Below are positions 4,610 through 64,000 of a stretch of 64,000 nucleotides of DNA, one piece after another. Source of the DNA: Leucoraja ocellata (lineage: Eukaryota); the NCBI GenBank assembly GCA_036785375.1, contig JAWMAR010000552.1:620001-684000 (forward strand), given 5' to 3'. A model generated the notes under the pieces. The model saw only the letters and a list, made by a program, of their open reading frames with translations, ran no database searches and was not told the origin of the DNA. The position numbers and the translations under genes were made by a program. The stretch's first letter is position 1. Each line of letters begins with the position of its first letter.

Positions 4610-4944
4610 CTTTGAATCACAGCGGGTGGAATACCGGAAGTCGAGTGTCGCTGTAACAAATGGCGGCCGTGACGTTCCGTTGCGTACTACACGTCAGCCC
4701 ATTGAATTTCGAAGGAGTGGTCTATCTTGTCCCTCTAGGATCTTTGCCTGTCACCGCACTGCCTGTGGATGGTGCTAAGAATGTGATTTGGCTGAAGTAG
4801 TTGCGGTATTCCAAGAATACCTTCAGCCTTTTGCACCCATTTACACATTCCTGCATATACTCCATTTGCCAGATCTTTACCTATCCGCATCCCTTTTTAG
4901 CCTCTCGAGGAGTCAGAAATGAACACAACAGCATACCAAATCTG

Positions 4945-5042
4945 TAGGAAAGAACTGTAGATGCTGGTTTAAATCGAAGGTAGAAGGGTCTCAACTCGAA
5001 ACGTTACCTATTCCTTCTCTCCAGAGATGCTGCCTGTCCCAC
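4945..5042. mobile_element. Short Penelope-derived pLTR insertion
   Basis: Inverted tail plus gaagggtctcaactcgaaacgtt motif; 16-bp TSD cagcataccaaatctg at 4929-4944 and 5043-5058. Confidence 0.7.
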
Positions 5043-5264
5043 CAGCATACCAAATCTGCCACATGTTATCATTTCTAGACATTAGTTTTTTAATCTTCCA
5101 CCCAAACCAGATGCACATAGTTTCCTCTCAATATTTGCAGATTAAACCTCTTCCCATTTACCTCCTTAATAAAAAATTTGACCTCTTTTGCTGCACCAGT
5201 CATCTTTTTAAAGCTTTGTGTGGGACTCATTGGCATTTACCAGCGGTTTTAGCAAAATCTACCA

Positions 5265-5697
5265 TGTGTAGGAAAGAACTACAAATGCTGGTTTAAACCA
5301 AAGATAGACACAAAAAGCTGGAGTAACTCATCGGAACTGGCAGCATCGCAGGAGAGAAGGAATGGATGACGTTTCGGGTCGAGACTTCTCTAACTTATTT
5401 AGCTTCTTTAGCTCCCGGCATTCCCTCTCTCTCCATCCCTCCCCAACCCAAGTCACACCAGCTTCTCATTTTCATCCAACGAACAACTAACAATGGCCTG
5501 TTTCCTTTATCATTGTTACTTTTTTGCATATCATTCATTCATTGTTCTTTATCTCTCTACATCATCATCTATATGTCTCGTTTCCCTTTCCCCTGATTAG
5601 TCTGAAGTAGGGTCTTGACCCGAAACGTCACCCATTCCTTCTCTCCAGAGATGCTGTCTGTCCCGCTGAGTTACTCCAGCTTTTTGTGTCTATCTTC
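5265..5697 (+). mobile_element. Penelope 3' end preceded by an inverted pLTR
   Basis: 5265-5388 is the reverse complement of the pLTR at 5600-5697; the middle matches the Penelope 3' UTR seen at 40790-40985. Confidence 0.8.
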
Positions 5698-5880
5698 TAC
5701 CAAGAGTTCAGTTCAGTTCAGTTTAGTTTATTGTCACGTGTACCGAGGTTAGTTTTACTAACTACTCTAGATTTTATTTCTATTAGGTTAAATGGTGGTG
5801 CAAGTTTGACCTTGGGTTAGGCATGCAAAAAGTTGACATTGGAACAGCCAGACTTACACAGCCGCACTGTTGGTCTAGCT

Positions 5881-6184
5881 GTGGCCACGGTAGCGCAGCG
5901 GTAGAGTTGCTGCCTTACAGCACTTGCAGTGCTGGAGACCCGGGTTTGAACCCGACTGGTACGGTCTGTACGGAGTTTGTACGTTCTTCCCGTGACCTTC
6001 TCCGAAATCTTTGGTTTCCTCCCACACTCCAAAGACATACAGGTTTGTAGGTTAATTAGCATGGTGTAAGTGTAAATTGTTTCCAGTGTGCTCAGGTTAG
6101 TTTTAACGTGCGCGGATCGCTGGTCGGTGCAGACTCAGTGGGCCTAAGGGCATGTTTCCGCACTGTCTCTAAACTAAACTAACT
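5881..6184 (+). mobile_element. HE1-type V-SINE
   Basis: tRNA-like A/B-box head, V domain (ggagtttgtacgttct...ggtttcctcccacactccaaagac), CR1-like tail with (TAAAC)n. Confidence 0.9.
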
Positions 6185-6614
6185 GAGCTGCATAGCTGGT
6201 GCTCAGGGACTTGTCTTGCTTGGGATTCACCATCAGCAAGCTGGGAAACCCACCTCTCCAAACCAATGTGAGTTAGATCCATTTACTTCCATGATGACAC
6301 CCAGGTGGACTTTAGAAAGAACAAAATACATATTTAAGTTTATTAATTTTGCCTTACTTTAATGTCTTGAATTATTTATTAGTAATTTGAAGCGTTTTAA
6401 TATATGTTTGTATTTGTTATTAAATACTTAGGTATTTTTGTTTTAACTATTTAAAACCATTTTAAACTGGTTTAAATGTCACTACATCGGAGGCATTTAA
6501 AACTCCCCTAAAGCCTTGACTATTTTGAAAGAACTAACCTCAGGATTTTGGATATTCTATGAAAGGTTACTTCCTTTCTGACGGGCCTGAAGCATTTCAA
6601 GAGACTGTTTCTAA

Positions 6615-10236: not shown

Positions 10237-10538
10237 GGTGCAGTATGTATCTTCACGCTGTGAGTGCGGTCTGATTACCCGCTTTCAGTGGAGGAATTGC
10301 TGCAAATTTATTCACTATAACGTGAAGTTATTAAGTACATAAGCTTTACACATGGATCAAAATGTTGAATTACATTGACCTCCTTTTCAAGGATAGCATT
10401 GAGAAAGATGCATTTGTGTTGGAGCTCTGACTCCAGCGGTTTGTGACAAATGGAAAATATTCTCAACATCTCAAACTGTTTTACTGCTCCTTCTGTTGCT
10501 TCCACCTGGTTATCTCACTTCTCAGAGGTGGAGAGAAA

Positions 10539-11908: not shown

Positions 11909-11914
11909 TATGCC

Positions 11915-16550: not shown

Positions 16551-16827
16551 TAGTTGTGATTTTATTCCAACATGCATTTACACAACAGGACCAAGATCCA
16601 GGAGTCTGAGGGGAAAATCTCATTTAACATTCTTACACAAGATCTGATTGTCGGCACTGAGAATACTATCAGTGTATTTGATTACTCTAAATTGGATGGC
16701 ACTGCCACTCTTAAGAAAGATATGGATGATCCTCACAAATGAGGGATGATGAAGATAAATGTGATAAAGTATACTTTGAGCAGAAATGAATCAATGATGC
16801 GAACAGAACCTAAATGGTGAGAAGTCT

Positions 16828-17712
16828 AAGAAGGAACTGCAGATGCTGGAACTCTGCTCTCACTCCCTGCCCCCCCCCCACTTGTAACAAGGGCAGAGTC
16901 CCCCTTGTCCTCACCTTCCAACCTACCAGCCGTCACATACAACAAATAATCCTCCAACATTTTCACCTCCTTCAACGGAATCCCCCCACTGGCCACATCT
17001 TCTCATCTCCTCCCCTGTCTACTTTCCACAGAGACCGCTCCCTCCGTAACTCCCTGGTCAATTTGTCCCTTCCTACCCAAACCACCCCTTCTCCTGGCAC
17101 TTTCCCTTGCAACCGAAGGAAATGCTACACTTCTCGCTTTACCTCCCCCCTTGACACCATTCATGGACCCAAGCAGTCTTTTCAGGTGCGGCAGAGGTTC
17201 ACCTTCACCTCCTCCAACCTCATCTATTGCATCGCTGCTCTAGGTGTCAGCTGCTTCTACATCGGTGAGACCAAGCGTAGGTTTGGCAATCGCTTCGCCC
17301 AACACCTCCGCTCAGTTCGCAATAACCAACCTGATCTCTCGGTGGCTCAGCCCTTTAACTCCCCCTTCCATTCCGAATCCGACCTATCAGTCCTGGGCCT
17401 CCTCCATGACCAGAGTGAGGTCCACCGTAAATTGGAGGAGCAGCACCTCATATTTTGCTTGGGCAGTTTACACCCCAGCGGTATAAACATTGACCTCTAA
17501 TTTCAGGTAGTCCCTGCTTTCTCCTCTCCTTCTCCCTCACCTCTCCCTCAGCCCATTGTCTCCGCCTCTTCCTTTCTTCTTTCCTCCCCCACCCTCACAT
17601 CAGTCTGAAGAAGGGTCTCGACGCGAAACGTTGCCTATTTCCTTCATTCAATAGATGCTGCCTCACCCCATGCTGGTTCTTCAGCAGGAATTTCTCCAGC
17701 ATTTTTGTCTAA
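16828..17712 (+). mobile_element. Penelope-like element, 5'-truncated, with GIY-YIG endonuclease and pLTR
   Basis: ORF 16814-17500 with CNRRKC and SSNLIYCI...FYIGETKRRFGNRFAQH; short inverted tail at the 5' end; 14-bp TSD ctaaatggtgagaa (16810-16823, 17713-17726). Confidence 0.92.
17605..17632 (+). ncRNA. Minimal hammerhead ribozyme motif in the Penelope pLTR (one stem II mismatch)
   Basis: CUGAAGA-A-GGGU CUCG ACGC-GAAAC-GUU. Confidence 0.6.
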
Positions 17713-18040
17713 CTAAATGGTGAGAATCTCACTTCAGTGGAGTAAAAGCAGTTAATAGGATGCAGGGGACAGAGCTTTAAAAGTAAAACTCTAAACTAGA
17801 GAATGATCAGATAAGTTTCAGGTTTTTAAATGTTGCCTTGCCGTCAGCTTTCCACATTTGAATGAATTAAGATTATACAGGGTATTGTGTTCAAATGCAA
17901 AGAGGTGTACATACCTTTGATGTAAAAAACAGTTTGATCACTGCTTATAGTTGTGATATTCATTTATGGTAAGTTTATTGGAACAGGGTAGACTACAAAT
18001 GTAGCAACAGCACAGAGTAGTTTTACTTCACATAACCATG

Positions 18041-19010: not shown

Positions 19011-19091
19011 GTGTAAATACAATAGAAAGGCTCCACATTGTACATTTATGAAACAAGTTAGTCTGCCCTCACATGACAATTTAATTTGCTG

Positions 19092-19965: not shown

Positions 19966-21254
19966 TGAATATGCATGTTCTTTGAGCCCAGATATCCTCT
20001 TTGTTAAGAACAAAAATATATTGTTCAAACATTAGAAAGACTTACATGCAGTAATAGCAAATTATTCTTGATGTGTTACAATATTCCTTCTTATGACCTT
20101 TTATCGGAGGCAAATTTGTACAAACGTTGTGCTAAGAATATTGCACTGCATAATTTCATATCAATATTTCACTCGGCAGGAGTTCAAGTTTGACCATTTG
20201 CAGAAGGCAGTCATTTGTGGTCCCCATTAGAACTCACCTGTTATTCCTTGAGGCCACGGGAGTTAATATTACAGATACACTGATGTGGAAACCTGTGAAC
20301 TACACTAAAATTTGAATTATACACACACATGAATAGATTTATATGTAATGACTTATGCATGAAATCCTGTCCCATCTCATTTTTTTCAAAATTAATTCAC
20401 CACTGAAATGTACTTAATAACTCAATCCTTTTAAATGCATAATGTAAGTGGTAGTTCTGATAAGCCCATTTAAATTAGTGGCACAAAAGCCAAAGATGGA
20501 AACCTTTCCACTCTTCTGACGTTTGCTTTGAAGATTGAAATTCCCTAATGTTCTTTTATATGCTCCTTAAAGTATAGAAACAATATTCTGAAATAGATGC
20601 AAAATGCTGGAGTAACTCAACGGGTCAGACAGCATCTCATTGAAATGCTTGACATCTACTTTCGCAATAAAGGTACAGAGATTATAGTTTTCAATTTAAA
20701 GGTTAACGATCTGAGGGATTGCCCATTCGAAAGACCAAATGTTGGGAAGCTTCCAAACAATTCGGTGAGAAAATAGACACAGAGATCAGGCAGTTCAAAT
20801 TTGAATTGGCTTGTGTTAATCTTGCCAACCTCAACAGCAAAGCTATTACAGTTGTTCACACTATCCTTGGACTGGGAAGAGATGAAATTAAAAACAGTTA
20901 GTTGCCTGGTCCTGCTTGCAACAGATGTAATTCAAGTTTCACTGTACCTTAATTGGTACATGTGACAATAAATAGACTTTTGAACCTTTGAATGGTATAG
21001 AGAAGGGAAAGAGCAGAATTGGCTGTGAAGCCTTTCCTGGCGGTTGCTGTCATCCTGTTAGAATTAAATGCTGGCGGTCCAAGCAGTGAAATGCTATTTC
21101 GTTATATTCTAATGATAAGCAGCAGAATAAAATGTTAAAGGCATTCTCTTTGAATGTTACAACTGCAGTCTATGCTTGTGAAATTCAAGCATTAAAGTAG
21201 ATAAGGATAAGATTGTGACAATAGTTATTTTAGTGATTCACCAATTCTAAAATC

Positions 21255-22105: not shown

Positions 22106-22280
22106 ATGTAAAGCTGTAATGTTGTTGTACCACGCTTCTCAATATTTCATTGGGGCTATTAATGCCATGGAAAGTGTCTGAGAAATATAACAAAATGCAC
22201 CTGGGCTAACGCTGGAAAGGGAATGAATCATGAGCTTTGGGAATCAGGTAGGAAACGGGCCAGAACTGGTGATCAGACTT

Positions 22281-22501
22281 AAGATAGACACAAAATGATG
22301 GAGTAACTCAGTGGGACAGACAGCATCTCTGGAGAGAAGAAAGGGGTGACGTTTCGGGGCGAGACCATTCTTCAAGTCTGAATAAGGGTCTCGACCCAAA
22401 ACGTCACCCCTTCCATCTCTCCAGAGATGCTGCCTGCCCCACTGAGTTACTCCAGCATTTTGTGTCCATCTTTGCTTTAAACTACACTTCCTTCCTACAC
22501 A
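22281..22501. mobile_element. Palindromic Penelope pLTR pair
   Basis: About 95-bp inverted arms centred near 22375; 14-bp TSD tggYgatcagactt (22267-22280, 22502-22515). Confidence 0.85.
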
Positions 22502-22527
22502 TGGCGATCAGACTTGATCTATTTTTA

Positions 22528-22623
22528 GGTTACACAGAACAGCTGGAGAAACTCAGCGGGTGCAGCAGCATCTATGGAGCGAAGGAAATAGGCAACGTTT
22601 CGGGCCGAAACCCTTCTTCAGAC
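22528..22623 (-). mobile_element. Single Penelope pLTR fragment with intact hammerhead core
   Basis: Minus strand CUGAAGA-A-GGGU UUCG GCCC-GAAAC-GUU (22594-22621); 11-bp TSD atctattttta. Confidence 0.8.
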
Positions 22624-23410
22624 ATCTATTTTTAAGCTGGGACTGCTGCAAGATTCCATAGCAAGGTAATGAACAACAGCTTGAGTTTTTTTTTTTTTAA
22701 ATCTCAATAATTTGCCAGCTTTCTACCAAAATTAAGTGTGGAGATGACACCTGATTAATGAGTCAAATATTTTTTTACTTGTTTTTTTATACAGCATTAA
22801 TTGTACAAAGCAGCAGAGAAATATTCACAGTGATGTTCAAGATCCTCTAAAAAAGTTTATTTAAAGCTGTAAAATATATGGGAAAATACATAATTACGAT
22901 GTCTCATTCCTGTTTTGTGTTTTGGTTGTTTTTGCTCCATCTGAAGACGTTGGGCATCACTTTGTTGCTATTCCCTGGCAGATTGCATCACCTTTCATCG
23001 TAGAAGCCAGTAGCCGCTGATCTGCTTTACCTGGACAATGCCCATTTGGTGAAAATAATCCTCCATTGATTCAATTATCTTAAGATAATGCCCAGTCGTC
23101 AAGTGCAAGCAAAAACAGGAATTGTTTGCCGAGGTTTATTTTGTTCAGTTGCTTCATTTCACTGCAATGGTCACGTTCACAGAAATTCTGGAAATTATAA
23201 ATTGAATGAAAATCTGTGGCTGCCACTCCCTGCAGCTCATGAGCTTGCTGGAGGCAGGACACGTTCCTCGCAGGTAGAAGAAATAAACACAAAAGGCCAA
23301 CCAGTTCAATTCTGTAAATCAAACACGGAATTTCCGCAGGGGAGTTGGAATTTAATCGGTTGACCAAGGGATTTGATGTTGTTAATTGTGCCGTCTTTGT
23401 TGAGTCCGAG

Positions 23411-25661: not shown

Positions 25662-25853
25662 AGACTGTCCGAAGAAAGGTCTCGACCCGAAACGTCACCT
25701 ATCCATGTTCTCCAGAGATGCTGCTTGTCTTCCTGCGTTACTCCAGCACTTTATGTCCCGCTATCCCTTGCCTGATTATGTGCCTCTACAACATTACTTC
25801 AGCACTTTGTATCCTTTTGTGTATTAATCAACATCGGCAGTTCCTTTTTCTAC
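25662..25853 (+). mobile_element. Penelope pLTR fragment
   Basis: gaagaaaggtctcgacccgaaacgtcacc...ttactccagcacttt. Confidence 0.75.
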
Positions 25854-29121: not shown

Positions 29122-31344
29122 CAGCATCTATAACACGTAGGTTGATGAAGATCAGGTCGGCTTATCACTTATGCCAGCTACGTCCGTCAGGACTTGGTCT
29201 GCGGGTAGAAATATTACAACACCTGTGGTGAAGTTTTCCACCTAGAATGCACTCAGAATCTGAAGAAGTAGTCCCGACCCAAAACGTCACCTATCCATGT
29301 TCTCCAGAGATACTGCCTGATCCATCTGTAAACCATTATTCCATCCCCTCTGCGGGCTCTGCCCTGCCAGCAAGACATGATGACTCTGGAGTGTGTGATG
29401 GAGCAGTCTGGCAAATGGCTGTAGATTGACTACCTGTGTTTGTGATTTATTACACATTACCCCAGCACTCATGAGACGGAACAGGCAAGGTTGTCAAAGC
29501 TGGGAGGAAACTTTCAGAATTCAGTGCCTAGTTTGCCTGGTTTTATTCATTGGTGGTTATGGTATTACTCAATGGTTTTCTGGGCCATTTCAGGACCAAC
29601 CACAGTACAGCAGTTCTGGAGTCACAGATAGGTCAGACTGCGTAAGAATTGAAGGCGTCCTCACTTTACAGTATCAGATGGGTTTCGAGGTCAATCTGGA
29701 TATTTTTGCAATCATCATTAACTGATGCTTAGTTTACTTCAAAACTTACAGATTATTAACAGTTTAAATTCCACAGTTAAACACTGTGGTGGGTTTAAAT
29801 TCAGGTCTTGGATTTTTAATTCGGGCATTTGTACCACGTCCTCTCTTTTAACTGCTTCACTAAATGTAGAATACCATATTTCATCTTTAGTGGTGGATCC
29901 CTGATGAAAACGTGTGCTGCTTTGTAGCACTGTAAAGGTTTTTGTTTCAACTCATTCCCACTTTGTATTAGTGGGAGGCTACACTGCAAGCATTGACTGC
30001 CTATCACAACATGGTCTATGTTTCAAGGGTGCTTTCTTGTCATTTTGAATTGCCTCAGGGTCAAGACATGCACCATATAACCGTGTAGCTTTCTTTATAA
30101 ATTCTCTGACTTCCTTGTGTTTGAAGTATTAAAGAAGATTTGTTCATTCTTTGGCAATTACTCTTTAATTTGCTTAATTTAACTGTTCCAGTATTAGAGC
30201 CAATTTGAATTAAATGAGGGATCTTAGCTATAGGCTGTTTCTTTGTCAGTAACAGGTTAATTACTTGAGTGATCAGCTTATCTGTGGGTCTGCTTCCGGT
30301 AATTGGGTAGCTGTGTGCACCAAGAGAGAATAGATTTTGGTTTAACCACTGAAGATTTCTTATGGTCTTTAAGAGACTGGAGTATGTTGCAGGCTGTGAG
30401 CTGGATAAGTGAGAAGGACAAGTGAGCTGTAGGTTATATTTTGAGGAGTTTAAACTCCAAGGCTAATGGGATTAAATGTTTCGGAATAAGGGTTTTGGGA
30501 GAAAAAAGAAGGTGGATAGGGTAGGAATTCTTGTGTGGTGAACATTTTGTGGAAAGACACAGGTGCTTCTGAGGTCTATTCATTCATCATCGTTAAAAAC
30601 ATTAGCGACACAGTGGTGCTGGATTCCAACAGGAACAGTGACGGACGGACCGCACATCTCTGTCCTCCAGTTCCTGCGGACTTCCGCCGCTGGAAGTATA
30701 GGATTTTGCTGTGTGTGCTTTATCACCATTCCTTACAATGCTATGTACGACAGTGAGCGCAACTTCTACTGAAGTGTGGAAGGCCGTTGGCTTGCTAGAA
30801 GTTCATCTGCCCTTTGACAGGTCTTGTTTTTGGTCCTGCTGGGGGTCCACAGCCCCCTCCTCACCTGGCAAACCAGCTGGGGGAGATGGTTTAGTCGCCG
30901 ACTATCCAACCATGGAGCAGGTAGTATGGGATTACATGGTACCCATGGCGGGGGAACTCCCCCCGACCTGTATTTGGGTGGTTTGACTAATCTCAGCTCA
31001 AAGATTTCTGGGTTTGAAAAGTGGAGCTATTAAGGTATTGATCCCAAATATTTATGAGTGTAAGACTTTTGAAATTACAAAGTGTTTACACATACATTGT
31101 GCTCTAAGAATAAAATAATTTAAAATACAGGGCCAGGAGTAGGCATCTACTCCTTGTGCCTGCTACACCATTTGTCAAAATCATAATTCATCATCTGTCT
31201 CAATGCTACTTTTTAATACCTGATATCCATGTTATTGAAGCTTAAAGTTTGTTCAGCCCTTCCTTAACTTTTCTCTACACTGTTATTTTGGCTGAAACTC
31301 TTGATCATTGAGCCAGACCCTTTGGCCTAGTGTACCTGTTTTAG

Positions 31345-31630: not shown

Positions 31631-31976
31631 CCACGTTTGTCCTAATATCGCCTTCTGGTTTGATTTCAAATTATGTTTTAATTATTTTCCAGTGAAGCTC
31701 TTTGGAATAGTATACAATATTAAATTTGTAATATGAGTATTCTTTTTAACTGATATTTAAGCCGGGGCCATACAATGGCCACACAATTCCATAAGAACTG
31801 CAGATGTTGGAATATTCATAATCAAACTCCATAATATTTTTCTTTCAGTCAGCATTATACAAAATTTATGAAAGCCCTGCTTTGTTAGAACTCGCGTGAC
31901 TCCAGTAGTGTCCTAACTGACACTAAGGGTGAAAATTACCAATGTCACTGGTCAGAACTGACAATTATGAAGTTGT

Positions 31977-32108
31977 GACACAAAAAGCTGGAGTAACTCA
32001 GCGGGGCAGGCAGCATCTCTGGAGAGAAGCAATGGGTGACGTTTTGGGTCGAGACCCTTCTCCAGGTCTGATCTTTGGTTTAAACCAGCATCTGCAGTTC
32101 CTTCCGGC
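31977..32108. mobile_element. Penelope pLTR mini-insertion with inverted tail
   Basis: 16-bp TSD acaattatgaagttgt (31961-31976, 32109-32124). Confidence 0.85.
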
Positions 32109-34507: not shown

Positions 34508-34589
34508 TATTCATGTAATGAGTCTGTGACAAAGATCATATGGAGTGGGTAATATATCCAAGGCCACAGCAAGTGATTGTCCAGAAATA

Positions 34590-37069: not shown

Positions 37070-37800
37070 ATGTGGCCTCCATGACTGTTTTGGTGAACAC
37101 TTGTACTCGGTCCACTAAGGCCTACTTGATCTGCTGGTTTATAACCATTTTAACTCCCCCTACCATTCCCATACTGTCCTTTTGTCATAGGCTTCTTCCA
37201 TTACCAGAGTGAGGCCAACTGAAGAAACGGCACCCTATATTTTGTTTGGGTAACTTACAACCTAACAGTATGAACATTGAATTCTCCATTTATAGAGCCA
37301 TGGAATCATAGTCATACAGTGTGGAAACAGGCCCTTCGGCCCAACTTGCACATGCTGGCCAACATGTCCCAGCTACAGACTCCTATTAAATCTTTTCCCC
37401 TTCACTAACCTTCCTTCCCCCACCTCCACTTTCCTATGTCCCACCTGGACTCACACACATTTCTCCACTTCCCCCACCCTTTCCACCTATATTCCATCTT
37501 CTGGCTTTGCATTTCATGTTTCACGCGTCTATCCTTGTCTCCTTATCTCACCCTTTTTGCCTTTTTCATCTCTGGCCATTGTTCAACCATCTGCCAATTG
37601 ACCCCCCCCCCCCCATTCACCTGTATTTCAGCTATCACTTGCCAGGGTTTGTCCAGCTCCCACCTCTCTTCCAGCTTTCTCCTCCACCTCCACCCTCCTG
37701 ACTACAATCAGTCCCCGATCTGGAACATCACATCTATGTTCTCCAGTGATGCAGCCTGACGCAACACCTTTTGTAAATAAAAATCTGCAGTTCCTTGTGT
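37070..37800 (+). mobile_element. Degenerate Penelope 3' end interrupted by a CR1 tail
   Basis: 37143-37290 aligns by eye with the GIY-YIG C-terminus at 17350-17500; CR1 tail on minus strand at about 37295-37400. Confidence 0.65.
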
Positions 37801-38726: not shown

Positions 38727-40658
38727 GTAACTCGTTCACGCCACGATCACCACCAGTGTCCACTTTCTTGCAGTTTCATAATTACCATTATAGAGACTGG
38801 GTATTTTTAAATTCTGGATTTGGTGTTCCATGTTGGGGAGATCAGTGGCAGGTGAGGTGACTAGTTTGAGGAACACCTCCTTCATCCCACACTCATGACC
38901 AGCTTTCAGCTCCCATTCTTGCCTCGGCTCCTAACCTGTGATTCAATGATGAATGCAACTTCACATTGTGACAAGGAATGTAACAATGTCTTTGATTCAA
39001 CATCAAGTTGAAACATTTTGGATATCAACATACTTACCTGTTCATTCCGCACTTTCTTATTTTATTTCAGATTTGCAGAACTTACTGTAATTTGTCATTT
39101 CAGTTCATATATTTCATTCACGCCTCCAATCAGATTGATCTTTTCTTTTCTTTCCAACCATCTTTTGCACAATCATCTTTCTTGTCACTCAATCTCTTTG
39201 CTGCAGACCTTTCCTTTTGTTCCTCTCTCCACTTCTCTTTTTCTTTGCCATTTAAAACGTGAATCGTCTGGTTTTGAGGCGAGATTCTTGACCAGAAAAG
39301 GCAACTCTGTTCCTATACCCACAAATGCTGCTTGATCTACTGTGACATGTAAGGGATACATTCTGAAAATTGTCTGTAAATTAATCCCTCCTTAAGCTAG
39401 AAATGACCGTTCTCTATAGCTGCTCTATCTGTATCGCTCTATCTGCCCTGGCTATCATTTCATTTCATCAAATATTCACCCAACACCATTGGTAATTTAA
39501 ATAATGAAATATATACTGTATCCAATCCTTAATGAGCACCACAAAACATGATTGTTTATTAATATTATTATTATTAATATTATTATTATTATTATTATTA
39601 TACAATTATAATAAAATTATTTCAAAAATGACTTCCAGAATTTGCATAAAGCCTGGTTTCTCGAAGTCAGGTCATCTATAACCTACAGAGCCCTTGCATA
39701 TCTTATACTTCCTGGGTTTATAGTGAGGAAATCTCCAAATATCTGGCCATTTAGAAACTCTGAAGGCATGTCATTTGGGTCACACATTAGTACAGGATGT
39801 GTGGCCATTCGTACAGGGAGCAAGCAGAGTGTGGAGCCTGAGATGGAGTCCAGACTGTGGGTGGGTGTGGGGTTGGAGCCAGGGGTGGGGTCCAATAATG
39901 CCAGAGGTCAGAAATGTAGCTCTTCCCAGCTTCTGCTAAACTCATCAGGTTAACTTGAAAAATAATATCGCATTATTAAGTAATGTATAAAATAAACCCC
40001 ACAGGAAATATAGGTCTTTTTTTATTTATAGGTGTAATTACCAATATTTCAGAAAATCTGCAGTAGCTTGGCACCATCAAAGTTCCCAGTGGGTTGTTTA
40101 CGTTAGATGGGCCTCCCAAAAGAACGTAAAAACATGAAGTTGGGGAAATTAGGATATTGCAATAGGAAACTCATTTTCAAGGGACAAGGAAAATTGTATT
40201 CTTATGATGTTTATTGAAGGTTACTAATTGAAATAACATCCCAGCAAAATATTTAGATGTGGGCATTTGTGGCAAATGATAGGACAGCTCAAACACAAAA
40301 CAAATAAGCAAGAGATTGTGGAATACTTTTTCAATTACAGATTTAAATGATGAAATTAATTGCTTTTTAGTAAAAGATTGTTTGCTGAAGAAATTGTGAG
40401 GTAAAATCTACATCATTAGAGTTACTGATGAAGTAGGAATGAAATAGATAATAATTAAAAAAAGGTAAATATTGAAAAAATGTTCTCATTCTTTCCTATT
40501 AAATCTCTAAAATAAAAGTAAAGGGGTGATTCTCTTTCATATTGGTGCATCAAATCTCCAACAATAGGGCACCAGGAACTAGCTGGGCTCAGGCAGCAGA
40601 GGATGTAAATCCAATTCCTCCATAACATATACTCCACTTTGAATTAAATATAATGCTT

Positions 40659-41138
40659 AGGAAGGAACTGCAGACGCTGGTTTAAACCAAAGACAGACAC
40701 AAGAAGCTGGAGTAACTCAACGGGACAGGTGACATCTCTGGAGAGAAGGAATGGGTGATGTTTCGGGTCGAGACACTTCTTCAGACTAGAGAAACTAGGG
40801 GCAACAAGAGATATAGATGATGATGTAGACAGATAAAGAACAATGAATGAAAGATATGCAAAAGAGTAATGGATAAAGGAAACGGGCCATTGTTAGCTGT
40901 TTGTTGGGTGAAAATGAGAAGCTGGTGCGACTTGGGTCGGGGAGAGATGGAGAGAGAGGGAATGCCGGGGCTACTTTAAGTTAGAGAAATCAATATTCAT
41001 GCCACTGGAGCTGCCCAAGCAAAATATGGGATGCCGTTCCAATTTGCGTTTAGCCTCACTCTGACAATGGAGTAGACCTAGGACAGAAAGGTCAGTGTGT
41101 GAATGTGAAGGAGAATTAAAGTGTTTGGCAACCGCAAG
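40659..41138 (-). mobile_element. Penelope 3' end
   Basis: pLTR, 3' UTR and endonuclease C-terminal remnant on the minus strand; 9-bp TSD ataatgctt (40650-40658, 41139-41147). Confidence 0.85.
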
Positions 41139-41499
41139 ATAATGCTTGCTCCTCTACAGAATCTTCAGATTCTCCCAGGTATCTCGCACCAATAAAATAC
41201 TTTGTGAAAATGTGACAGCTTTCACTTCCTCTATAAGTTCACAGCAGCCCATGATAATGTCTATCTTTGGTTTAAACCGGCATCTGCAGTTCCTTCCTAC
41301 ACATTTTATCTGCTCCACTGTGAAATGGCCAGAGGAGATTGTGTAATGATATCTTTCCATGTCTTTGACTTCTCTCCTCGTGATGAGAAGGGGCACTCCA
41401 GAATTCTGGGGGAAATAAAACATGGTATGATTATTGATCAGATAATTTGTGCTGATGTTGATTAAGGGATAATCTTTGTCTAGGACAGAGAGTAACTCA

Positions 41500-41645
41500 T
41501 TAGATCATAAGTGATAGGAGTAGAATTAGGCCATTCGGCCCATCAAGTCTACTCTGCCATTCAATCATGGCTGATGTTTCTCCCCCTCCTAACCCCATTC
41601 TCCTCCCTTCTCCCCATAACCTCTGACACCTGTACTAATCAAGAA
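41500..41645 (-). mobile_element. CR1 3' tail
   Basis: gataggagtagaattaggccattcggcccatc... Confidence 0.85.
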
Positions 41646-42166
41646 TTAGAGGGTCTCGACCCGAAAAGTCACCCATTCCTTCTCTCCAGAGATGCTGCCT
41701 GTCCCACTGAGTTAACCCCCTGTCCCACTTAGGAGACCTAAACAGCAACCTCTGGTGACCTTGCACGCCACCCAAAAAAAAATCAAGGTCGAGGTGACCT
41801 GCAACTTCCTACACCCTCCCACGCATATGTTGAAAACCTTCCTCGACTATGAAGAAAACCGGCTTCGACTAGACCGGCGACAAAAAAATGATTGATTTTT
41901 AAAACGGCAACCTATTTTTAGTCGAGGCCGGTTTTAATCATGATGAAAAAATAGCAGGAACCTAGATGAAGCCTCGACCACGTGGAAACCACTTCGCCCA
42001 TTAGGGAGAGTGACCAAAACCTCCGGTGACCTCATGGAAACCTTGGGTGGCGGGCAAGGTCACCAGAGGTTGCTGCTTAGGTCTCCTAAATGGGACAGGG
42101 GCTTTACTCTAGCATTTTGTTTCTACCTTTGATTTAAAACAGCATTGCAATCCTTTCCTACACAAA
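41646..42166 (+). mobile_element. Penelope pLTR interrupted by a Harbinger MITE
   Basis: gggtctcgacccgaaa...ctgagtta resumes as ttactctagcattttg at 42104; flanking repeat gYacKaatcaagaa (41632-41645, 42167-42180). Confidence 0.8.
41715..42103. mobile_element. PIF/Harbinger MITE
   Basis: About 60-bp TIRs starting accccctgtcccacttagg; TTA TSD at 41712-41714 and 42104-42106. Confidence 0.9.
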
Positions 42167-43111
42167 GCACGAATCAAGAAGCACTTCCCTTCTTCAAAAA
42201 AAGTGGAGAGGCATCTTTTATACTTGTCAGATATAAAACAGAATCTCACAGTGGCACCTCAGGCAGTACAGCAGGCCTTCAGCACCGCACTGGAATGTCA
42301 CCTACATTCATTCATATGTGCTCATATCTCTGGAGTATGAACTCACTCCTGATTTGGAGGGTTGAAAATGAAACAATTAATTTATTTCAAAGGTTCAGTA
42401 TACACAATAGTAATCTTTTGGAAGATGGCAATCTAATAACAGAAAATGTGGCTTATCTTCTTGATTCTGAATTAATATGAAAATGTAATCCATGTCCTTT
42501 AAAACACATTTGCTTTCTGGATGGCAGCAGTGTAGGTGGACATCAGAGTGCACAGCTATTCACTAGGGAACCTCCCCACAGTTCATTCAGAAGTAACAGG
42601 TTGAGCCCTTTGGCAATATCCGTGTATTGAGCAATCATTGAGTACAACTTCGGCCTGCAAGGATTAAATTACTCTGCAATTAACTTTAATAAAATAAAGG
42701 TTCCTGCAAATTGGCCATAAACTGGCTTTGAACTATATTCCAACAATGTATACATTGTTGTCGATTTTTTTTGGTTTCATAATAGGCAGAGTTAATAGGC
42801 TCGTCTTGCACAGGTTGACACAAGCGACATTCTCTGTTCACTTTGGATCTTTACAAACGATGGGCTAAAAGTGTAATGTCACAAAATCACACGAGGTGCC
42901 CCATGGCTGAGACCAAGCCGACCAGCATAGGAATTCATAGAAAATAGAACACAGGAGTTGATCCTTCGGCCCACAATACCTGGGTCAAACATATTCCCAA
43001 CTTAAACTAATCACTGTATCTGTTCATATTTGGCGATAGTGGCCGACTCCAGTGAAGAGTCTTGTAGTAATAGAATGTCTTGTAGAAGACAATATAGTCA
43101 ATGTATATCGT

Positions 43112-43199
43112 CACAGAATGCTGGAGTAACTCAGCGGGACAGGCAGCATGTCTGGAGAGAAGGAATGGATGACATTTCGGGTCGAGACCCTTCTTCAGT
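43112..43199 (-). mobile_element. Penelope pLTR fragment
   Basis: gctggagtaactcagcgggacaggc...tttcgggtcgagacccttcttcag. Confidence 0.8.
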
Positions 43200-43419
43200 G
43201 TACAGATATTTTAAAGAAAAACTTCTCTGGGCACTTCCTAGTTTTATGATAAAGATATTGAAGGGCAGAGCTAATTAAGAATGAACTGTAACCATGCCGT
43301 GCATTTGTCACAAAAGGCATCTATAATGACCTGGGATCTATGATGATGCCCTGCCTCTTGCTGTCATCCATCCTTTTTCTCCAGAGATACTGCCTGACCC
43401 ACTGAGTTACTCCAGCATA

Positions 43420-50841: not shown

Positions 50842-51271
50842 CAGTCACCTCATTGCTAAGCTGAGCCTATGCCTGTGCAGTATAATGAATTTCAGAGGTA
50901 GGTTGTGAATACAGATGTTTCTTAATATTTTCATTGAACATCAACAAATGAGATATTGCATTAGGAGATTGTTTTTTGGATAATTTTTGCAGTGCTTTTT
51001 TTTAATGTACCCTGCGCAAGGTTATGAGTTAGACTCTTGGAGTTAATTTTGTGTTTATCAAGCCGGTCATGATTTGACAATTGTCAATGTGATTCAGAAG
51101 ACCTTTCATGGATTCATCCTGAAATTTGGACCAATCATTACAGCCATGGCTTCTTAATCAGGACAACAATGCCTGGACTGTTATTTATATTTGCAGTGGA
51201 TCAAAATTCCCCAAGCACAGGCTACAGAAGAATGGAATCGCCAGCAGAAAGCAAGTTCACACATTTTAAAT

Positions 51272-51394
51272 GTGTATGAAGGAAGTGTAGATGCTGGTTT
51301 AAACCATTTATAGATGCAAAATGCTGGAGTAACTCAGCAGGTCAGACAACATCTCTGGAGAGAAGGAATTGGTGATGTTTTGGGTAGAGACTCT
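51272..51394 (-). mobile_element. Penelope pLTR fragment
   Basis: gatgctggtttaaacc...gctggagtaactcagc...ggtgatgttttggg. Confidence 0.75.
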
Positions 51395-51398
51395 TTTA

Positions 51399-51801: not shown

Positions 51802-52122
51802 GCATTAGACTGGAGAAAAAATATACTTTTGGACATCGTATAAATTGCACTAATGCTCCTGATATTCAATTACTCCTGATATTTCATTTTAAATTGTGAA
51901 GCTACAAAATGTAAATTCTGAGTAAATATGTGGTAACATTTTCTCGCAGATTTTCTTTAAAATTTCCCTGATGGCATAGCTGTGATCCATATCAACATGA
52001 CATATGACACAGTTGTTAAATGTTTCCCTGCTGATAATAATATTTTCCATGCTTGACATTTTTAAAGTGCTATTCCATTTCTTTGCCAATCACCATTGAT
52101 GCTTGTGACACCTCATGGCATG

Positions 52123-52354
52123 AAGATAGACACAGAAAGCTGGAGTAACTCAGCGGGACAGGCAGCATGTCTGGAGAGAAGGAATGGGTGACGTTTCGGG
52201 TCGAGACCCTTCATCCCTAGCCAGTCTGAAGAAGGGTCTAGACCCGAAACGTCACCCATTTTTTCTCTCCATAGATGCTACCTGGCCCGCTGAGCTACTC
52301 CAGTATTTTGTGTCTATCTTCGGATTAAACCAGCACCTGCAGTTCCTTCCTATG
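52123..52354. mobile_element. Palindromic Penelope pLTR pair
   Basis: About 90-bp inverted arms plus one-sided tail; 12-bp TSD cacctcatggca (52109-52120, 52355-52366). Confidence 0.88.
52226..52253 (+). ncRNA. Minimal hammerhead ribozyme motif
   Basis: CUGAAGA-A-GGGU CUAG ACCC-GAAAC-GUC; all core nucleotides present. Confidence 0.65.
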
Positions 52355-52770
52355 CACCTCATGGCACTGTCCCTTTAATGGTGAAGAGTTTGAATTGGTT
52401 CGGAAGCGAGTGCACTGCCACAGCTGGATCAGAAATCGATATCACCGCAATCGTTTAAGTGTCAACATTTAATTTGACATCAGCCTTCTCCCAGTTTCCA
52501 CTCTGTGAGAACCCTGTCATCTGTGCTGAGGAGTTGCTTTCTGATCTTGGGCTGTTTGATTTTCCACTGCTCCTGCAGAGAGCCCAGGCCAGGCTGTTCC
52601 CAGGCCAGCTGCTGCTGCTGCTTGATCAGGCAAGGTGCAGGTAAACATCACGCCCTTCGCAGCCTGGAGCCCTTCACAGTGAGCTGAGGTGATGCAAAAA
52701 AAAACTCCCCTTGCTCAGGAGAGTGGCACCCAGGGGTGCTTCTTGTACAGGAGACGCCCATTTCACATTT

Positions 52771-53092: not shown

Positions 53093-53201
53093 CATCTGAA
53101 GGGGTTACTATTCCAGACAACACGAAGACGGGATGTTATTCTCGGTGGCATTCCACTGCAATATAGAGACTTACAGCGTGGAAACAGGCCTTTCAGCCCA
53201 A

Positions 53202-53421
53202 ATTATTTAAGAAGGAACTGCAGATATTGGAAAATCTAAGGTAGACAAAAATGCTGGAGAAACTCAGAGGGTGAGGCAGCATCTATGGAAATAGGCAACG
53301 TTTCGGGTCAAAACCCTTCTTCAGTCTGATGTGAAGGGTTTTCGACCTGAAACGTTGCCTATTTCCTTCGCTCCATAGATGCTGCCTCACCCGCTGAGTT
53401 TCTCCAGCATTTTTGTCTACC
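53202..53421. mobile_element. Palindromic Penelope pLTR pair inserted in a CR1 tail (53165-53545)
   Basis: Inverted arms 53240-53324 and 53333-53421; 10-bp TSD ttcagcccaa (53192-53201, 53422-53431). Confidence 0.88.
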
Positions 53422-54102
53422 TTCAGCCCAACTTGCCCACACTGGCCAACATGTGCCATCTACACTAGTCCCACCGACCTGTATTTGGCCCATATTCCTC
53501 TCAGCCTGTCCTATCCATGTACCTGTCTAATGGTTTCTTAAACATAAGCATTCTTCTTCCTTAATTTCTTTGAGTTCTCTTGAGGAAACTTTAGAGCAGT
53601 ACCACAGATGGTTTAAAAAAGCAGGCTGTCAGTTCTTAATAGTCAACCACATGTGATAATATAAAATAATTTCACCCAACCAAAGTCAAGTGTTCCAATA
53701 CACCTGTCTCTTTCTCCACGCCCACCCTCTCTAACTCCTCCCCCTTACTTCATCTCCCCCTCTTTGTCCATCTCTCACACTTTGTCACCCCCCCCCCCCC
53801 CCCCCATATCTCATCACCCTCTCTTTTCCCACTCCTTTCCCAACCCCCTCTCTTTTCTGAGGATATTTTCTGCTTTTCACTTTCTTCTTGTGGGACTCAA
53901 GCAAACGTCCCCTCTGCATCTAAACCTCAAAAGTTATTGCTGATTTTTCAACATTAACAATTGACCAATGCAAATCATCCTTGCATGTGGAACAACTCCA
54001 AAAAAATGTCCAGATGCCAGAAATCTGAAACAAAAAAAGAGAAAAATGCAGCAAACACTTAGCGGGTCAGTCAGCATCTGTAGAAGGAGAAACTGTCAAT
54101 GA

Positions 54103-56568: not shown

Positions 56569-57535
56569 TGGTTATGAGGTTCACTATGTTGTATGTAATT
56601 ATTATTCTATCTAGCCCACAGGACCCTTCTAATTTCACTTGTTAAATCTTTGACAATATTTAGTCCTTAACTCGGGTAACCTTGGCTCTGTCAATAAATA
56701 TGAGATTTCCAACTTAGCCTTAATAATCAGGAGATATGGAAACAGCGATTGGCCGTGAGTGTCGGAAAGGTTACAAATTCTGTTTTCCATACCAACATAA
56801 TCCTATTCAATTATTGCCTTCTAACGTCATGGAAATTTGCAACGTAGTTTCCTCATGGAAAAAAAAAGTTCAAAGGAATATGTTATATAACGTTCACATA
56901 TATTATGTTCATTGTCCTTCAAAGGCCCCTCCAACTACCAGAACATTAATAAACTGTTCTTAATGGACAGTACAAGATCTAAAATAGCCAAAAGGACAAA
57001 GTACTGGAGTAGGTCAGCAGGTCAGGCAGCAGCCCTGGAGAATATGGATAGGTGACGTTTCGGTTTGTGACCCTTCTAAAATTGCCGTTTTATTTTATTT
57101 ATTTGCACCTCTTTCACTAATTTATACTTTGACTACATTACTACTAGTCTCTAGGACTGGTGTACAACTCCCACCATTTGTTTCTGCCTCTTATTACTAC
57201 TTAGCTCCACTCAAAGTATTTTTTAAGCTAAGATACTTCCTTTCCATTGACAACACTTTTTTTCATATCAAGGCTGTATCTCTAAACTAAACTAAACTAA
57301 ACTTGTGAGAATAAACTGGGGAATTCAAGCAAAACGTCCTTACCCATAATGATGATGACGTGAAATATGCTACTAGAAGGAGAGAATGAGGCAAGTAAAA
57401 TGTACAAGAGTACATTTAGGAGTTAGGTAGATTAGGGGTTTCAAGGAATAGACTGATGGGGTAAGGTATGAGGGGTATTGAGGAGTAGATGTGGAGTTTC
57501 AAGGAATAGGCTGATGGGGTAAGGTATTAGATGAG

Positions 57536-57800
57536 AAGACACCAAGGTGCTGGAAAAACCAGAATGAAGAAGGGTCCCAATCCAATATGTCACCTACTCA
57601 TGTTGGCTCGATATGCTGCCTGACCTGTTAAGTTATTCCAGCACTTTGTGTGTAGGGAGGAACTGCAGATGCTGGTTTAAACTGAAGACAGACACAAAAG
57701 GCTGGAATAACTCAGTGGGTCAAGCAGCATCTCTGGAGAAAAGGAATAGGTGATGTTTCAGGTTGAAGAATGGTATCTGCAGTTTGTTGTTTCTAGATAC
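57536..57800. mobile_element. Rearranged Penelope pLTR cluster
   Basis: Forward and reverse pLTR pieces; flanking tagatgag repeat (57528-57535, 57801-57808). Confidence 0.7.
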
Positions 57801-57978
57801 TAGATGAGTTGTGTTCATTTTCCTTTGTTGTTTGGTTATTGTACCCAATTAACTAAAAACAATTACTTGGCTTTTTTTTTGCTGCTTCTAAAGTGTTTCA
57901 GCAAAGTTGGTGTTGCAATGATTGCTTCCATACAGCATGATGAGAAATATTTCTGAACAAAGTGAATTGGTTGGTGTT

Positions 57979-60839: not shown

Positions 60840-60859
60840 ACACTCAATTGCTTTGTTCA

Positions 60860-60984
60860 GTGTGTAGGGAGTGGATGCGAAAGTGGGATAACATAGACCT
60901 AGTGTGATTGGGTGATTGCTAGTTGGCGTGGACTTGTTAGGCCAAGAGGGCTGTTTCCATGCTGTATCTCTAAAACTGAAACTG
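60860..60984 (+). mobile_element. HE1-type SINE 3' part
   Basis: ctgtttccatgctgtatctctaaaact tail. Confidence 0.7.
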
Positions 60985-61049
60985 GTTTCAATGTATTTCT
61001 AATGGAAAAATCAATGTCTTGGGTGGATGTAATTGTTCTCCCTTTCTTT

Positions 61050-61405
61050 TCATAAGTTGTAGGAGCAGAATTAGGCCATTCGGAACATCAAGTCCATTCA
61101 GCCTTTTAATCATGGCTAATTTATCTTTCCCTCCCAACCCCATTCTCCTGCCTTGTCCCCATAACCCCTGACACCATACTAATCAAGAATTTATCTTTCT
61201 CCACCTTAAAAATATCCATTGACTTGGCCCCCACAGGCTTCAGTGGAAATAAATTCCATAGATACACCACCCTCTGACTAAATAAATTCCTCCTCATCTT
61301 CTTAAAGGTACATCCTTTTATTCTGTGGCTATGGCCTCTGGCCCAAGACTCTCCCACTAGTGGCAACATCCTCTCCACATCCGCTCTATCCAGGCCTTTC
61401 ACAAT
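61050..61405 (-). mobile_element. CR1 3' end
   Basis: ORF 61121-61402 KGLDRADVERMLPLVGE...RVVYLWNL. Confidence 0.88.
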
Positions 61406-62004
61406 TCATAAAGCTATTGGAATCCTGGCCAAAATTAAATATTTTTTTGTCATCATGAGCAAGCAGAGACAATGGGCAGCAGAGGGAGAATCAGTTAAGC
61501 CAGGTGATATTGTCAGACCTAAACATACAATATCCTTTAGCATAAACCAGGTACTGTCACTGACTGGGCAATTTTCAATGCACAAGGCTGCATTCTCACC
61601 TGAAGGTGGGGAGGATAGAAATTGGCCATGATTTCTACATGTGGTTCACGTGACATTTATGGCACATTTCCATTTGATATTGTCAAGCTAATAGAACAAT
61701 GCATTCTCATTTTTCAAGGCACGCATAAGCAGACGGAAATTGTTATGAATGATGTGCGGGCTGCAAACAAATGTGAATAGAAAGGCAGAGGAAATAGTTA
61801 AAAAAATTTAAATAAAATATGGAATTATAAACAATAGAATAGAATAATTTATGTGTAAATGCAAACAACATTAATAAATCTTGCTAACTTGCCATAAATG
61901 CATTAGGATTGTACATATTTTACTTTGAATTCAGTGTCTTGGCAAGTAAAATCAAATATTCCACATCAAAGCCATGAGTTATAAAATGAGTTAAAGTAAT
62001 CGAA

Positions 62005-63090
62005 CCATATAGCATGTAAACAGGCCTTTCGGCCTAACTTGGCCTTGCCAACCATCATGCCCCATCTACACTAGTCCCACCTTCCTGTATTTAGCCCATA
62101 TCCCTCTACTCCTATCCTATCCATGTACCTGTGTACATTTCTTAAATGTTGTGATAGTACCTACCTCAGCTACCTCTTCCGGCAGCTCATTTCATATACC
62201 TACCTCTCTTTGTGTGCAAAAAAAAGTTGCCCCTATTAAATCTTCCTTCAATGTCCTCCGTTCCCGATTCGCTTATTCTAGGTAAAAGACTCTGTGCATT
62301 TACCCTAACTTTCCTCTCATGCGTTTATACACCTCTATAAGATCACTCCTCATCCTCCTGCTGTCCAAGAACTAAGTTCTTGTCTGCACAACCTCTCCCA
62401 ATAGCTCAGGCTCTCAAGTCCTGGCAACATCCTCATAAATCTTTTCTGCACCCTTCCCTTTTCTGGTAAAATAGGTAAAGGGGAACCAGTAGATAAGAAG
62501 TACTTGGAGTTTCGGAACACTTTTGGTTGTAAAAATTAAGTTGAAATGAGGGTCATTGAAAAGTAGTTGAGGGACAAAAAAGGAAGTAAAGGAGCCCTCT
62601 CTGTGTTCTAAAAACTTATCCCCCACATCTTCTTATCTTAAAGCTATGCTTTCTAATCTGACATCTCCACCCTGTGAAAAAGGTTCTGATTGCCTACCCA
62701 ATCAGTGCCTCTCATAATTCTATATACTTCTAGCAGTTCTCCCTTCAACCTCTACACTCCAAAGAAAACAACCCGAGTTTGTCTAACCTCTCCTTATGAG
62801 CTAATGCCCTCCAATCCAGGCAGCGTTCTGGTAATCCACATCTGCATCTTTTCCAATCTACATCTGTCCCATAATGGGATGACCAGAACTGCAAACAATA
62901 CTCTAAATATGGCCTAACCAAACCTATAAAGATGCAACATGACTTCTGGATTTTTATACTCAATGCCTCGACTGATTTAAGGCAAACATAACATAGGTCT
63001 TCTTTACGACCCTGTCATTTGCTGTTGACATTTTTCGGGAGCTATGGACTTGGAATCCAAGATCTCGTTGTACCTCAATGCTATTAAGTA
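62005..63090 (-). mobile_element. Two CR1 3' fragments (62005-62457, about 62595-63090)
   Basis: LVRPYLEYCLQFWS, ERLDKLGLFSLE; CR1 3' UTR at 62005-62150. Confidence 0.8.
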
Positions 63091-63892
63091 TCTTGGCAAT
63101 AGTTCCACCAAGTCTCCTCTCAGGTTACAAATAAATTAACCCCCCCCCCCCCACCCGGCTAATCTTTCCTCATTGCCAAAATTTCCCAACCCTGTCAGCT
63201 TCCTTGTGAAACTCTTTCTGCTTGCACCTCATCTTTCCTGCACCAATGATTTGCATTGTAGACGATTCCCACTGTGATCTGAATTCAACAGACTTGCCTT
63301 CAATAAATAATTTATTGACTGCAAGGTGCTTTAGCATGCTGCTGGGGTTATGAAAATTGCCTGCATAAATTGAAGCTTTCCATTTCTATATCGGAGGGTC
63401 AGTCTGACTTATTGCTCGGTGGAACATCAGCAGGCTGACTGCTGCCCTGAGGTCTAGTGCCTTTGCAATTCTAAATGTTGCATGAGGTCAGGGTTTAAGC
63501 TTGGCTGTGTTACTCCTCCCTCCCCCCCCCTGCCTAAATAGCCTGCTGACACTCACTATCAAGATTTGCCTGTGAATAATGACCTCGGGGGATCTGCACG
63601 GCAGGATGCTTAGTGCTTATTGAACTGTGCCTCATCAAGAGGTCAGTTCTTTTGGGAAACCGAGTTAGAGAAGAAAAATGGCTGTGCAGAGCAGAGTGGT
63701 TAAAAAAATAAAACAAACAGCTTTCCTACATCTATCAGGTTCTAGAGCCATCCTGCATATCTCTCATCCTACCTCAGCCACAGAGTACTACGGACTGCCT
63801 TTTGCATTCCATGGACTAGTTTTCTAGTTGTATTCTGCACCAATGATTTCTGTGCAGTCTTTTTACTGTTTCACAGAACTGATGTGTAATTT

Positions 63893-64000
63893 AAGGTAGA
63901 CAAAAATGCTCGAGAAACTCAGCGGGTGATGCAGCATCTATGGAGTGAAGGAAATAGGCACCGTTTTGGCTTGAAACCATCTTCTGATTGATGTGTGGGT
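63893..64000 (-). mobile_element. Penelope pLTR, runs off the window end
   Basis: Same arm as 53238-53330. Confidence 0.75.

Follow-up and report, generated by a model that had tools for sequence, protein, structure and literature searches.

Short terminal-repeat copies of Neptune-type Penelope-like elements in a Leucoraja ocellata contig end in a step at the 5' edge of their hammerhead motif

A 64,000-nucleotide stretch of the genome of Leucoraja ocellata (contig JAWMAR010000552.1, positions 620,001 to 684,000, forward strand; hereafter the window) is repeat-rich, with 42% GC, and carries many copies of a family which, judged from its sequence, consists of terminal-repeat pieces of Neptune-type Penelope-like elements (PLEs). 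Counted with its long copies, the family occupies 4,536 bp of the window (about 7%). Most copies are ordinary dead fragments; the stubs are old and mostly 60 to 230 bases long. A first-pass annotation offered extreme truncation as one of two readings, which was right in kind, but truncation is not random: the 5' ends step at the 5' edge of a hammerhead motif. Positions in the unit are numbered relative to C3 of the hammerhead CUGANGA box.

A profile hidden Markov model (HMM) of the approximately 98-nt unit was trained on 17 arms, which match it by construction. It gave 25 matches in the window at E < 1e-5 and 34 at E ≤ 10, the best match in the reversed window having E = 0.68, and it found the repeat at all 15 coordinates of the first-pass annotation. 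Further copies lie at 20593, 40654-41140 (long), 41258 (tail only), 43363 and 57649, as does a long copy with a partly deleted hammerhead at 37096-37790; older relatives of the unit are at 39282, 45237, 54040 and 55222. Arms were assigned by eye, from diagnostic letters, to three subfamilies (A, 15 arms; B, 5; C, 5), each with at least one copy running upstream into the 3' untranslated region (UTR) or the end of the open reading frame (ORF). Stubs and long copies cluster together in the unit tree, which is largely unresolved (2 of 22 inner branches supported; subfamily B clade support 100/99). A 23-nt motif had no match in viral, metagenome and prokaryote collections.

The longest copy ties the repeat to a protein. 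Its frame at 16883-17497 can be aligned to 205 residues at the C-terminus of 17 proteins (E ≤ 1e-10), the closest being shark and ray proteins with reverse transcriptase (RT) and GIY-YIG domains (55-58% identical, E down to 5e-67). All five homologues scanned have RVT_1 and GIY-YIG matches, with GIY-YIG above the curated cut-off in two. Taken alone, the window protein matches Pfam GIY-YIG weakly (E 0.033, below cut-off), so that the GIY-YIG ORF proposed at 16828-17712 is borne out through its homologues. In the Cys linker motif that precedes GIY-YIG (CX2-5CxxC), C76 and C81 are invariant in the alignment and C84, mutated in the window copy, is nearly so. This motif is a feature of Neptune and Nematis (PMC8557442, excerpt). 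The ORF probably encodes the C-terminus of a Neptune-type PLE protein, the linker motif being common to both groups; the RT core is absent by truncation and there is a local compensated frameshift. Alignment of the protein against viral contigs gave no confirmed relative. A Penelope origin, a minimal hammerhead motif and an inverted partial repeat, all proposed at first pass, are supported.

The copies are as follows (strand in brackets; TSD, target-site duplication).

4929..5058: two-armed insert; tail-only arm in inverted orientation, 4945-4984 (-), and a second arm, +4..+62, at 4982-5040 (+); 16-bp TSD, 4929-4944 / 5043-5058.
5258..5702: two-armed insert, subfamily A; short tailed arm 5262-5391 (-), long untailed arm 5383-5697 (+) running from about -207, at the ORF end; 7-bp duplication, P = 0.065.
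16810..17726 (+): the longest copy, of subfamily B; a tail-only arm in inverted orientation (16827-16851), an ORF end truncated on its 5' side, a 3' UTR and, at 17605, the hammerhead motif; untailed; 14-bp TSD.
16883..17500 (+): putative Neptune-type PLE protein C-terminus, truncated and mutated; thumb/linker with Cys motif, GIY-YIG; RT core absent.
20589..20646 (-): short arm, +46..+91, without hammerhead.
22267..22515: foldback, subfamily A; arm 22281-22374 (-), start +1, untailed; arm 22375-22502 (+), start -3, tailed; arms 89% alike (84/94); 10-14-bp TSD.
22517..22634 (-): solo stub, subfamily B, -2..+91; hammerhead boxes intact; 11-bp TSD adjoining the 5' end.
25667..25760 (+): solo stub, subfamily C, start -2; a TSD was looked for and none found.
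29259..29325 (+): solo stub, subfamily C, -1..+66; a TSD was looked for and none found.
31961..32124: two-armed insert; arm 31977-32065 (-), 0..+88; tail-only arm 32066-32107 (+); 16-bp TSD.
37096..37790 (+): old long copy, subfamily C; ORF end, UTR, partly deleted hammerhead, tail; another repeat inside at about 37290-37375.
40647..41147 (-): long copy, subfamily A, -356..+131; ORF end, UTR, hammerhead (its C3 at 40784) and tail; the 12-bp TSD has one mismatch; reference for read mapping.
41258..41305 (+): tail-only arm, +85..+132.
41634..42180 (+): one stub, +7..+126, its halves (41649-41714 and 42104-42164) parted by an inverted-repeat element; 12-bp duplication with one mismatch, found by eye outside the null test.
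43108..43199 (-): solo stub of subfamily A, 0..+91; its TSD falls short of significance.
43363..43419 (+): stub starting at +25, adjoining the predicted cleavage site.
51270..51396 (-): tailed solo stub, +6..+132; its TSD falls short of significance.
52109..52366: foldback, subfamily A; arm 52122-52215 (-), start +2; 7-nt filler; arm 52223-52356 (+), start -3, with tail and intact hammerhead boxes; arms 87% alike (82/94); 12-bp TSD.
53192..53431: foldback, subfamily B, within another repeat; arm 53206-53337 (-), start -13, tailed; arm 53338-53423 (+), start +7; arms 95% alike (74/78 plus an 8-nt deletion); 10-bp TSD.
56978..57086 (-): solo stub of subfamily C, +4..+89; its 12-bp TSD has one mismatch.
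57522..57808: compound; a two-armed insert of subfamily C, made up of a short arm (57536-57560), a second arm (57565-57654) and what is left of a tail (to 57795), apparently invaded by a tailed subfamily-A stub at 57649-57766 (-); outer duplication P = 0.023.
63893..64000 (-): subfamily B arm extending into its UTR and running past the window end.

Flanking duplications beat a null of 399 random intervals at 11 of 27 intervals (P ≤ 0.023); the 12 duplications listed are 7-16 bp long. TSDs had been claimed for many of the 15 first-pass loci, 14 of which could be tested (63893 runs off the window); eight are significant, but four are not, the perfect 7-mer at 5264 reaches only P = 0.065, and 41646 is just the 5' half of a copy split by an inverted-repeat element of about 390 bp. 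The 3' ends are bimodal, at +87..+95 or +124..+132, as they are in invertebrate relatives (+86..97 and +142..153). All seven two-armed inserts have the tail on exactly one arm, and in three of them the tailed arm is the tail alone. The three foldbacks noted at first pass do have a one-sided tail, but they are not near-perfect, with arms matching at 84/94, 82/94 and 74/78 positions, the last plus an 8-nt deletion. In the two subfamily-A foldbacks the arms are no more alike than unrelated A copies, and these foldbacks are therefore old.

Four sequencing runs, presumably from the same or related species (two RNA, two DNA-type), were mapped on the long copy at 40630-41170 at 80% likeness, with not all events counted. 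Inversion junctions shared between loci had been suggested as a mark of an independent family. All eight junctions viewed at two-armed sites in the window differ, with 1-5-nt microhomologies or filler, and the related runs contain 360 distinct joints. Among the 15 listed, six are opposite-strand joints, none of them present in more than 6 of the over 110,000 contigs matched; as palindromes assemble poorly, these contig counts are support rather than proof. The inserts were very probably made separately, each at its own site, as dead products of Neptune-type PLEs of three subfamilies. Target duplications, head-to-head arms and a one-sided tail are documented Penelope features: the inverted truncated arm and one-ended tail (PMC8557442) and 8-10-bp TSDs and solo terminal repeats (pLTRs; PMC3846280) are described in the excerpts available, and single and opposite-strand hammerhead pairs have been interpreted as truncated PLEs (PMC4209133, excerpt). 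Our search of the literature, partly of excerpts, found no description of the family in elasmobranchs; repeat databases and image-only supplements, which lay outside it, may hold one.

The arms of the foldback at 52122-52321 differ at +79, a site splitting the family about 60:40 in reads, and its left arm has two changes in common with 43198; the arms may derive from two RNAs, or this may be chance. Copies appear to be nested in copies at 57522-57808 and 40632-41324 (outer duplications P = 0.023 and 0.010), the second nest enclosing about 120 bp of other sequence. Short arms of the same kind occur in invertebrate relatives (L073, 1-216; L042, 842-950; L003, 949-1103), among them one mini foldback with arms starting at -6 and +2.

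The 5' ends form the step. Eighteen of 23 mapped ends fall within -13..+16, two stop earlier and three continue for 200-750 nt; the set excludes arms that are tail only, the 57536 short arm, the 37096 long copy, all four of the older relatives and an arm that the window end cuts off. For inserts with a recognizable duplication, 13 of 16 ends are in the zone. The stop rate is 0.045 per nt from -13 to +16 versus 0.001 and 0.002 on the flanks (P = 2e-13, for a zone picked after viewing the data). In the related RNA runs, depth over the core was 8,172 and 22,763 versus 166-292 and 299-446 over the UTR, with ORF-end peaks of 528 and 1,327 and a flat upstream profile without decay. Across the related runs depth drops at least 15-fold at the hammerhead 5' edge, and the commonest loose read ends are at -3, -2, -1, 0 and +10. 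Ends defined by ribozyme cleavage were considered and rejected, as predicted cleavage would put them at +28, where 1 of 23 lies in the window and 2 of 22 in relatives. The step is at the hammerhead 5' edge, upstream of the cleavage site, and ribozyme cleavage does not set this boundary. No published description of such a step was found in the sources, some of them excerpts, although repeat databases and image-only supplements, outside the search, may hold one.

The family majority fits a minimal type I hammerhead (CUGANGA, stem II, GAAA, a palindromic link and UH), and 80 related metagenome loci contain 33 matches to the full descriptor (reversed control, 0), mostly with the same palindromic box and with a helix I of 3-6 bp and varied sequence. 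The window motif is assigned to the PLE hammerhead family as a true member. The label hammerhead-bearing, used at first pass, is right for the consensus but not for most copies: both CUGANGA and GAAACGUH are kept in 4 of 25 arms, three copies in the window pass the descriptor (reversed control, 0), and 12 of the 25 arms start within or past CUGANGA (14 were flagged truncated, including one internal deletion and one alignment-end effect, left out here). In the window stem II has 4 bp and helix I 2 bp at best, fewer than the 4-5 bp of a minimal type I hammerhead. No two-sided change was seen among 16 window arms, as expected for dead copies; invertebrate relatives do covary. Excess conservation of the core, a check proposed at first pass, was not found (core 77/79 versus 714/763, Fisher P = 0.12; further Fisher P values 0.67 and 0.34). 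Searches of Rfam gave no hammerhead family match, only sub-threshold matches to miRNA-like hairpins, and predicted monomer folds did not adopt the hammerhead (z -1.2 to +1.0). The stubs inherited the hammerhead, and nothing indicates that they need it. Metazoan PLE minimal hammerheads (PMC4209133, excerpt) are similar in having CUGANGA, an extra unpaired A, stem II, a palindromic GAAACGUH and no helix III loop, and in occurring mainly as single motifs or opposite-strand pairs. They differ in helix I, which has 4-5 bp in their consensus and 2 bp in D. virilis, compared with 2 bp here.

A mechanism can be fitted to what was observed in this analysis (family identity, TSDs, bimodal 3' ends, heterogeneous junctions and the 5' step) by taking two-strand cleavage and two internal start sites from the literature. 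The Neptune protein would nick both target strands 7-16 bp apart and cDNA would be primed from both nicks, starting at one of two internal sites on the RNA, +94 or about +126; the tail would be the stretch between them. Two short cDNAs, head to head, would give a foldback tailed on one arm, and a single cDNA a solo stub. Stubs would owe their shortness to an RNA template that stops just 5' of the hammerhead, at about -3, most simply at the transcript's own 5' end. The start sites would then lie only about 100-130 nt into the mRNA and initiation there would run off its end, and only a downstream tandem copy of the start site would let cDNA reach the UTR and ORF. We lean towards run-off at an RNA 5' end, which we infer to lie at about -3, as what sets stub length. 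Such a start would also leave only three bases for helix I. The sequence at -5..0 fits what we take to be the initiator consensus, TCAKTY, with its A at -3.

A biochemical precedent comes from a lizard, whose PLE protein cuts and extends both strands from two sites 111-118 nt into the ORF, gives a shorter product from a 5'-truncated template and uses uncleaved RNA (PMC11167929). That element, Poseidon of Anolis, resembles the window family in having 3' ends a tail apart, extension of both strands and a boundary independent of ribozyme cleavage. It belongs to another PLE clade, and the main text of that paper is silent on short run-off copies and on a cluster of 5' ends. Neptune EN+ PLEs, as far as the excerpts of PMC8557442 and PMC3846280 describe them, have a C-terminal GIY-YIG with Cys linker, an inverted 5'-truncated arm at the 5' end, a one-ended tail of 30-40 bp and 7-16-bp TSDs; here, by contrast, mostly the terminal 60-130 nt or so are present, with 5' ends stepped at the hammerhead edge.

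Several observations weigh against an RNA start at the step. The peak at -3 is inflated by a private indel in the reference just upstream of -3 and by subfamilies with other UTRs that share the core. Contig depth is only 4-13-fold over the ORF peak and gives no copy number. The -5..0 motif also matches a splice acceptor, and the related RNA runs contain no site at which many RNA molecules start. In invertebrate relatives, loci that were chosen for having an ORF, the match to the initiator is poorer and clustering is weaker, with 6 of 22 second arms in the zone (five at -10..+2). No full-length copy with its 5' hammerhead was found in the window or in the 80 related loci. In D. virilis the hammerhead lies about 120 nt downstream of the start site, and helix I marks the end of an intron (PMC2377424, PMC4209133, excerpts). 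A spliced template was tried as a separate candidate and rejected: no common leader lies upstream of 10 solo stubs (3 weak matches in 40 tests), and no intron joint is among the 15 of 360 joints listed.

It is possible, but rather unlikely, that inserts of this same origin were copied from a longer template and that the step instead reflects a block to RT or a hot spot for joining. RT might pause at a folded or protein-bound hammerhead, and the lizard ribozyme does require protein (PMC11167929), but a fold is expected to halt RT on its 3' side, near +28, where 1 of 23 ends lies. Alternatively, cDNA ends might anneal or self-prime at palindromes of the motif (around -1, in stem II, or in the AACGTT-type box). 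The 1-5-nt microhomologies at window junctions are consistent with this, as are palindromes at inverted junctions of rotifer PLEs, interpreted as self-priming (PMC3846280, excerpt). However, solo stubs whose TSD adjoins -2 (22623) or +4 (57077) are incompatible with annealing of two cDNAs, and snap-back leaves the +94 end of the second arm unexplained. Doubtful, too, is self-amplification of the 100-130-nt unit as a short interspersed element (SINE)-like partner with an internal promoter, using Neptune protein in trans and forming foldbacks at each insertion. This would suit the fixed 5' edge and the large excess of the unit, which is present in 0.19% and 0.29% of reads in the two RNA runs, and pLTRs in cis suffice for trans-mobilisation (PMC3846280, excerpt). 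The stubs 43198 and 52215 also have two non-CpG changes in common, which may be chance. Yet all three subfamilies have long counterparts, no stub-only clade appears in the tree (mostly unresolved, 2/22 branches), and the RNA strands are about equal, as from passive read-through or an unstranded library. A unit with its own transcription start and both RT start sites would be a self-sufficient, ribozyme-independent, dispersed SINE-like partner of PLEs, which we consider improbable; if so, stubs would beget stubs and foldbacks and reach very high copy number in elasmobranch genomes.

Recombination between the two terminal repeats of a full-length copy, an origin put forward for certain solo pLTRs of rotifers (PMC3846280, excerpt), would retain the TSD of a solo stub, but it could not yield foldbacks or tail-only arms, its repeats of about 100 bp are short and no full-length copy was seen; it is scarcely credible here. 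Also very improbable is a non-LTR (long terminal repeat) retrozyme, a tandem, ribozyme-processed, circular-RNA family with these inserts as monomers. Retrozymes have been reported as pLTR-derived and as present in one chondrichthyan (bioRxiv 10.64898/2026.07.22.740005), and a head-to-tail joint of a 130-bp unit from -3 to the tail end (40787>40658) occurs in 6 contigs per DNA-type run. Against this, those contigs are among 113,913 and 129,497 matched, a search of the window for head-to-tail tandem arrays found none, the unit ends off the cleavage site, and the core is kept in only 4 of 25 arms with a helix I of 2 bp. The 130-nt back-joint was seen in one RNA read of the related runs, whose polyA libraries would miss circles. 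Rare tandems exist elsewhere in these genomes, and rare retrozyme-like ones may be among them. The independent retrozyme-like family offered at first pass is not supported, given the lack of tandems in the window, the broken ribozymes, the absence of excess core conservation and the differing junctions. Animal non-LTR retrozymes (PMC7229834, excerpt; bioRxiv 10.64898/2026.07.22.740005) share with the window inserts a short, non-coding, pLTR-derived sequence with a type I hammerhead motif. They form head-to-tail arrays with complete ribozymes and circular RNA, whereas the window inserts are dispersed, head-to-head or solo, with mostly broken motifs. Two other back-joints, 40744>40706 and 40764>40706, mark a piece of about 65 nt without CUGANGA and are seen in each of the RNA runs, with up to 232 reads and 101 starts; they are absent from both DNA-type runs and perhaps come from one expressed locus with a tandem duplication.

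The structures themselves are known from Penelope, and the useful point is the 5' step. If the step is the RNA 5' end, short terminal-repeat copies made from the mRNA 5' end would be a built-in by-product of internal initiation. This would account for the solo and opposite-strand minimal hammerheads that have been reported by the thousand from animal genomes and provide raw material for retrozyme arrays. It would also hint at how terminal repeats regenerate, which is called unexplained in PMC2377424 (excerpt).

Reads bearing the unit numbered 13,669 of 7,335,232 and 36,800 of 12,895,792 in the RNA runs, with strands about equal. Because stubs account for about 7% of the window and are in 0.2-0.3% of the RNA reads of these runs, they are a large potential source of double-stranded RNA (dsRNA). 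A search for RNA data sets containing 51900-53700 listed none, which speaks neither for nor against expression. The foldback at 52122 is predicted to form a long hairpin that buries the motif (-156.8 kcal/mol, z -16.8); the earlier proposal that foldback dsRNA masks the ribozyme would hold trivially for a transcribed foldback. No excess of A>G was found in the related runs, where the A>G, G>A, T>C and C>T sites listed all rise about 1.5-fold from DNA to RNA runs; mapping was family-wide at 80% likeness, and editing at single loci is therefore beyond this comparison. The RNA-high A>G site at 40689 is a CpG that varies among window copies. A Pfam scan of 148 of the 195 non-repeat frames of at least 62 aa found no host exon, although short exons would escape it; five of the 148 gave matches, all retroelement-like.

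Other elements lie in the window. The element that splits a stub, at 41715-42103 (about 390 bp, with terminal inverted repeats), looks like a miniature inverted-repeat transposable element (MITE) of a DNA transposon, and a related near-perfect palindrome (arms 97 nt, 95%) is at 10538-10751. Long interspersed element (LINE) fragments are at 18533-19045, 32956-34535 and 46135-47550; Pfam ALKBH8_N matches in two LINE-like frames probably reflect a transposon-derived model and not a host gene. There is an assembly gap of 160 N at about 4060-4220, a 38-bp tandem of four copies at 55825-55976 and a GC-rich, internally repeated segment at 58756-59374. Finally, a short repeat family with a tRNA-like head, at 5880, 7608, 11185, 23414, 27566, 49944 and 54104, resembles what we take to be the elasmobranch HE1 SINE.

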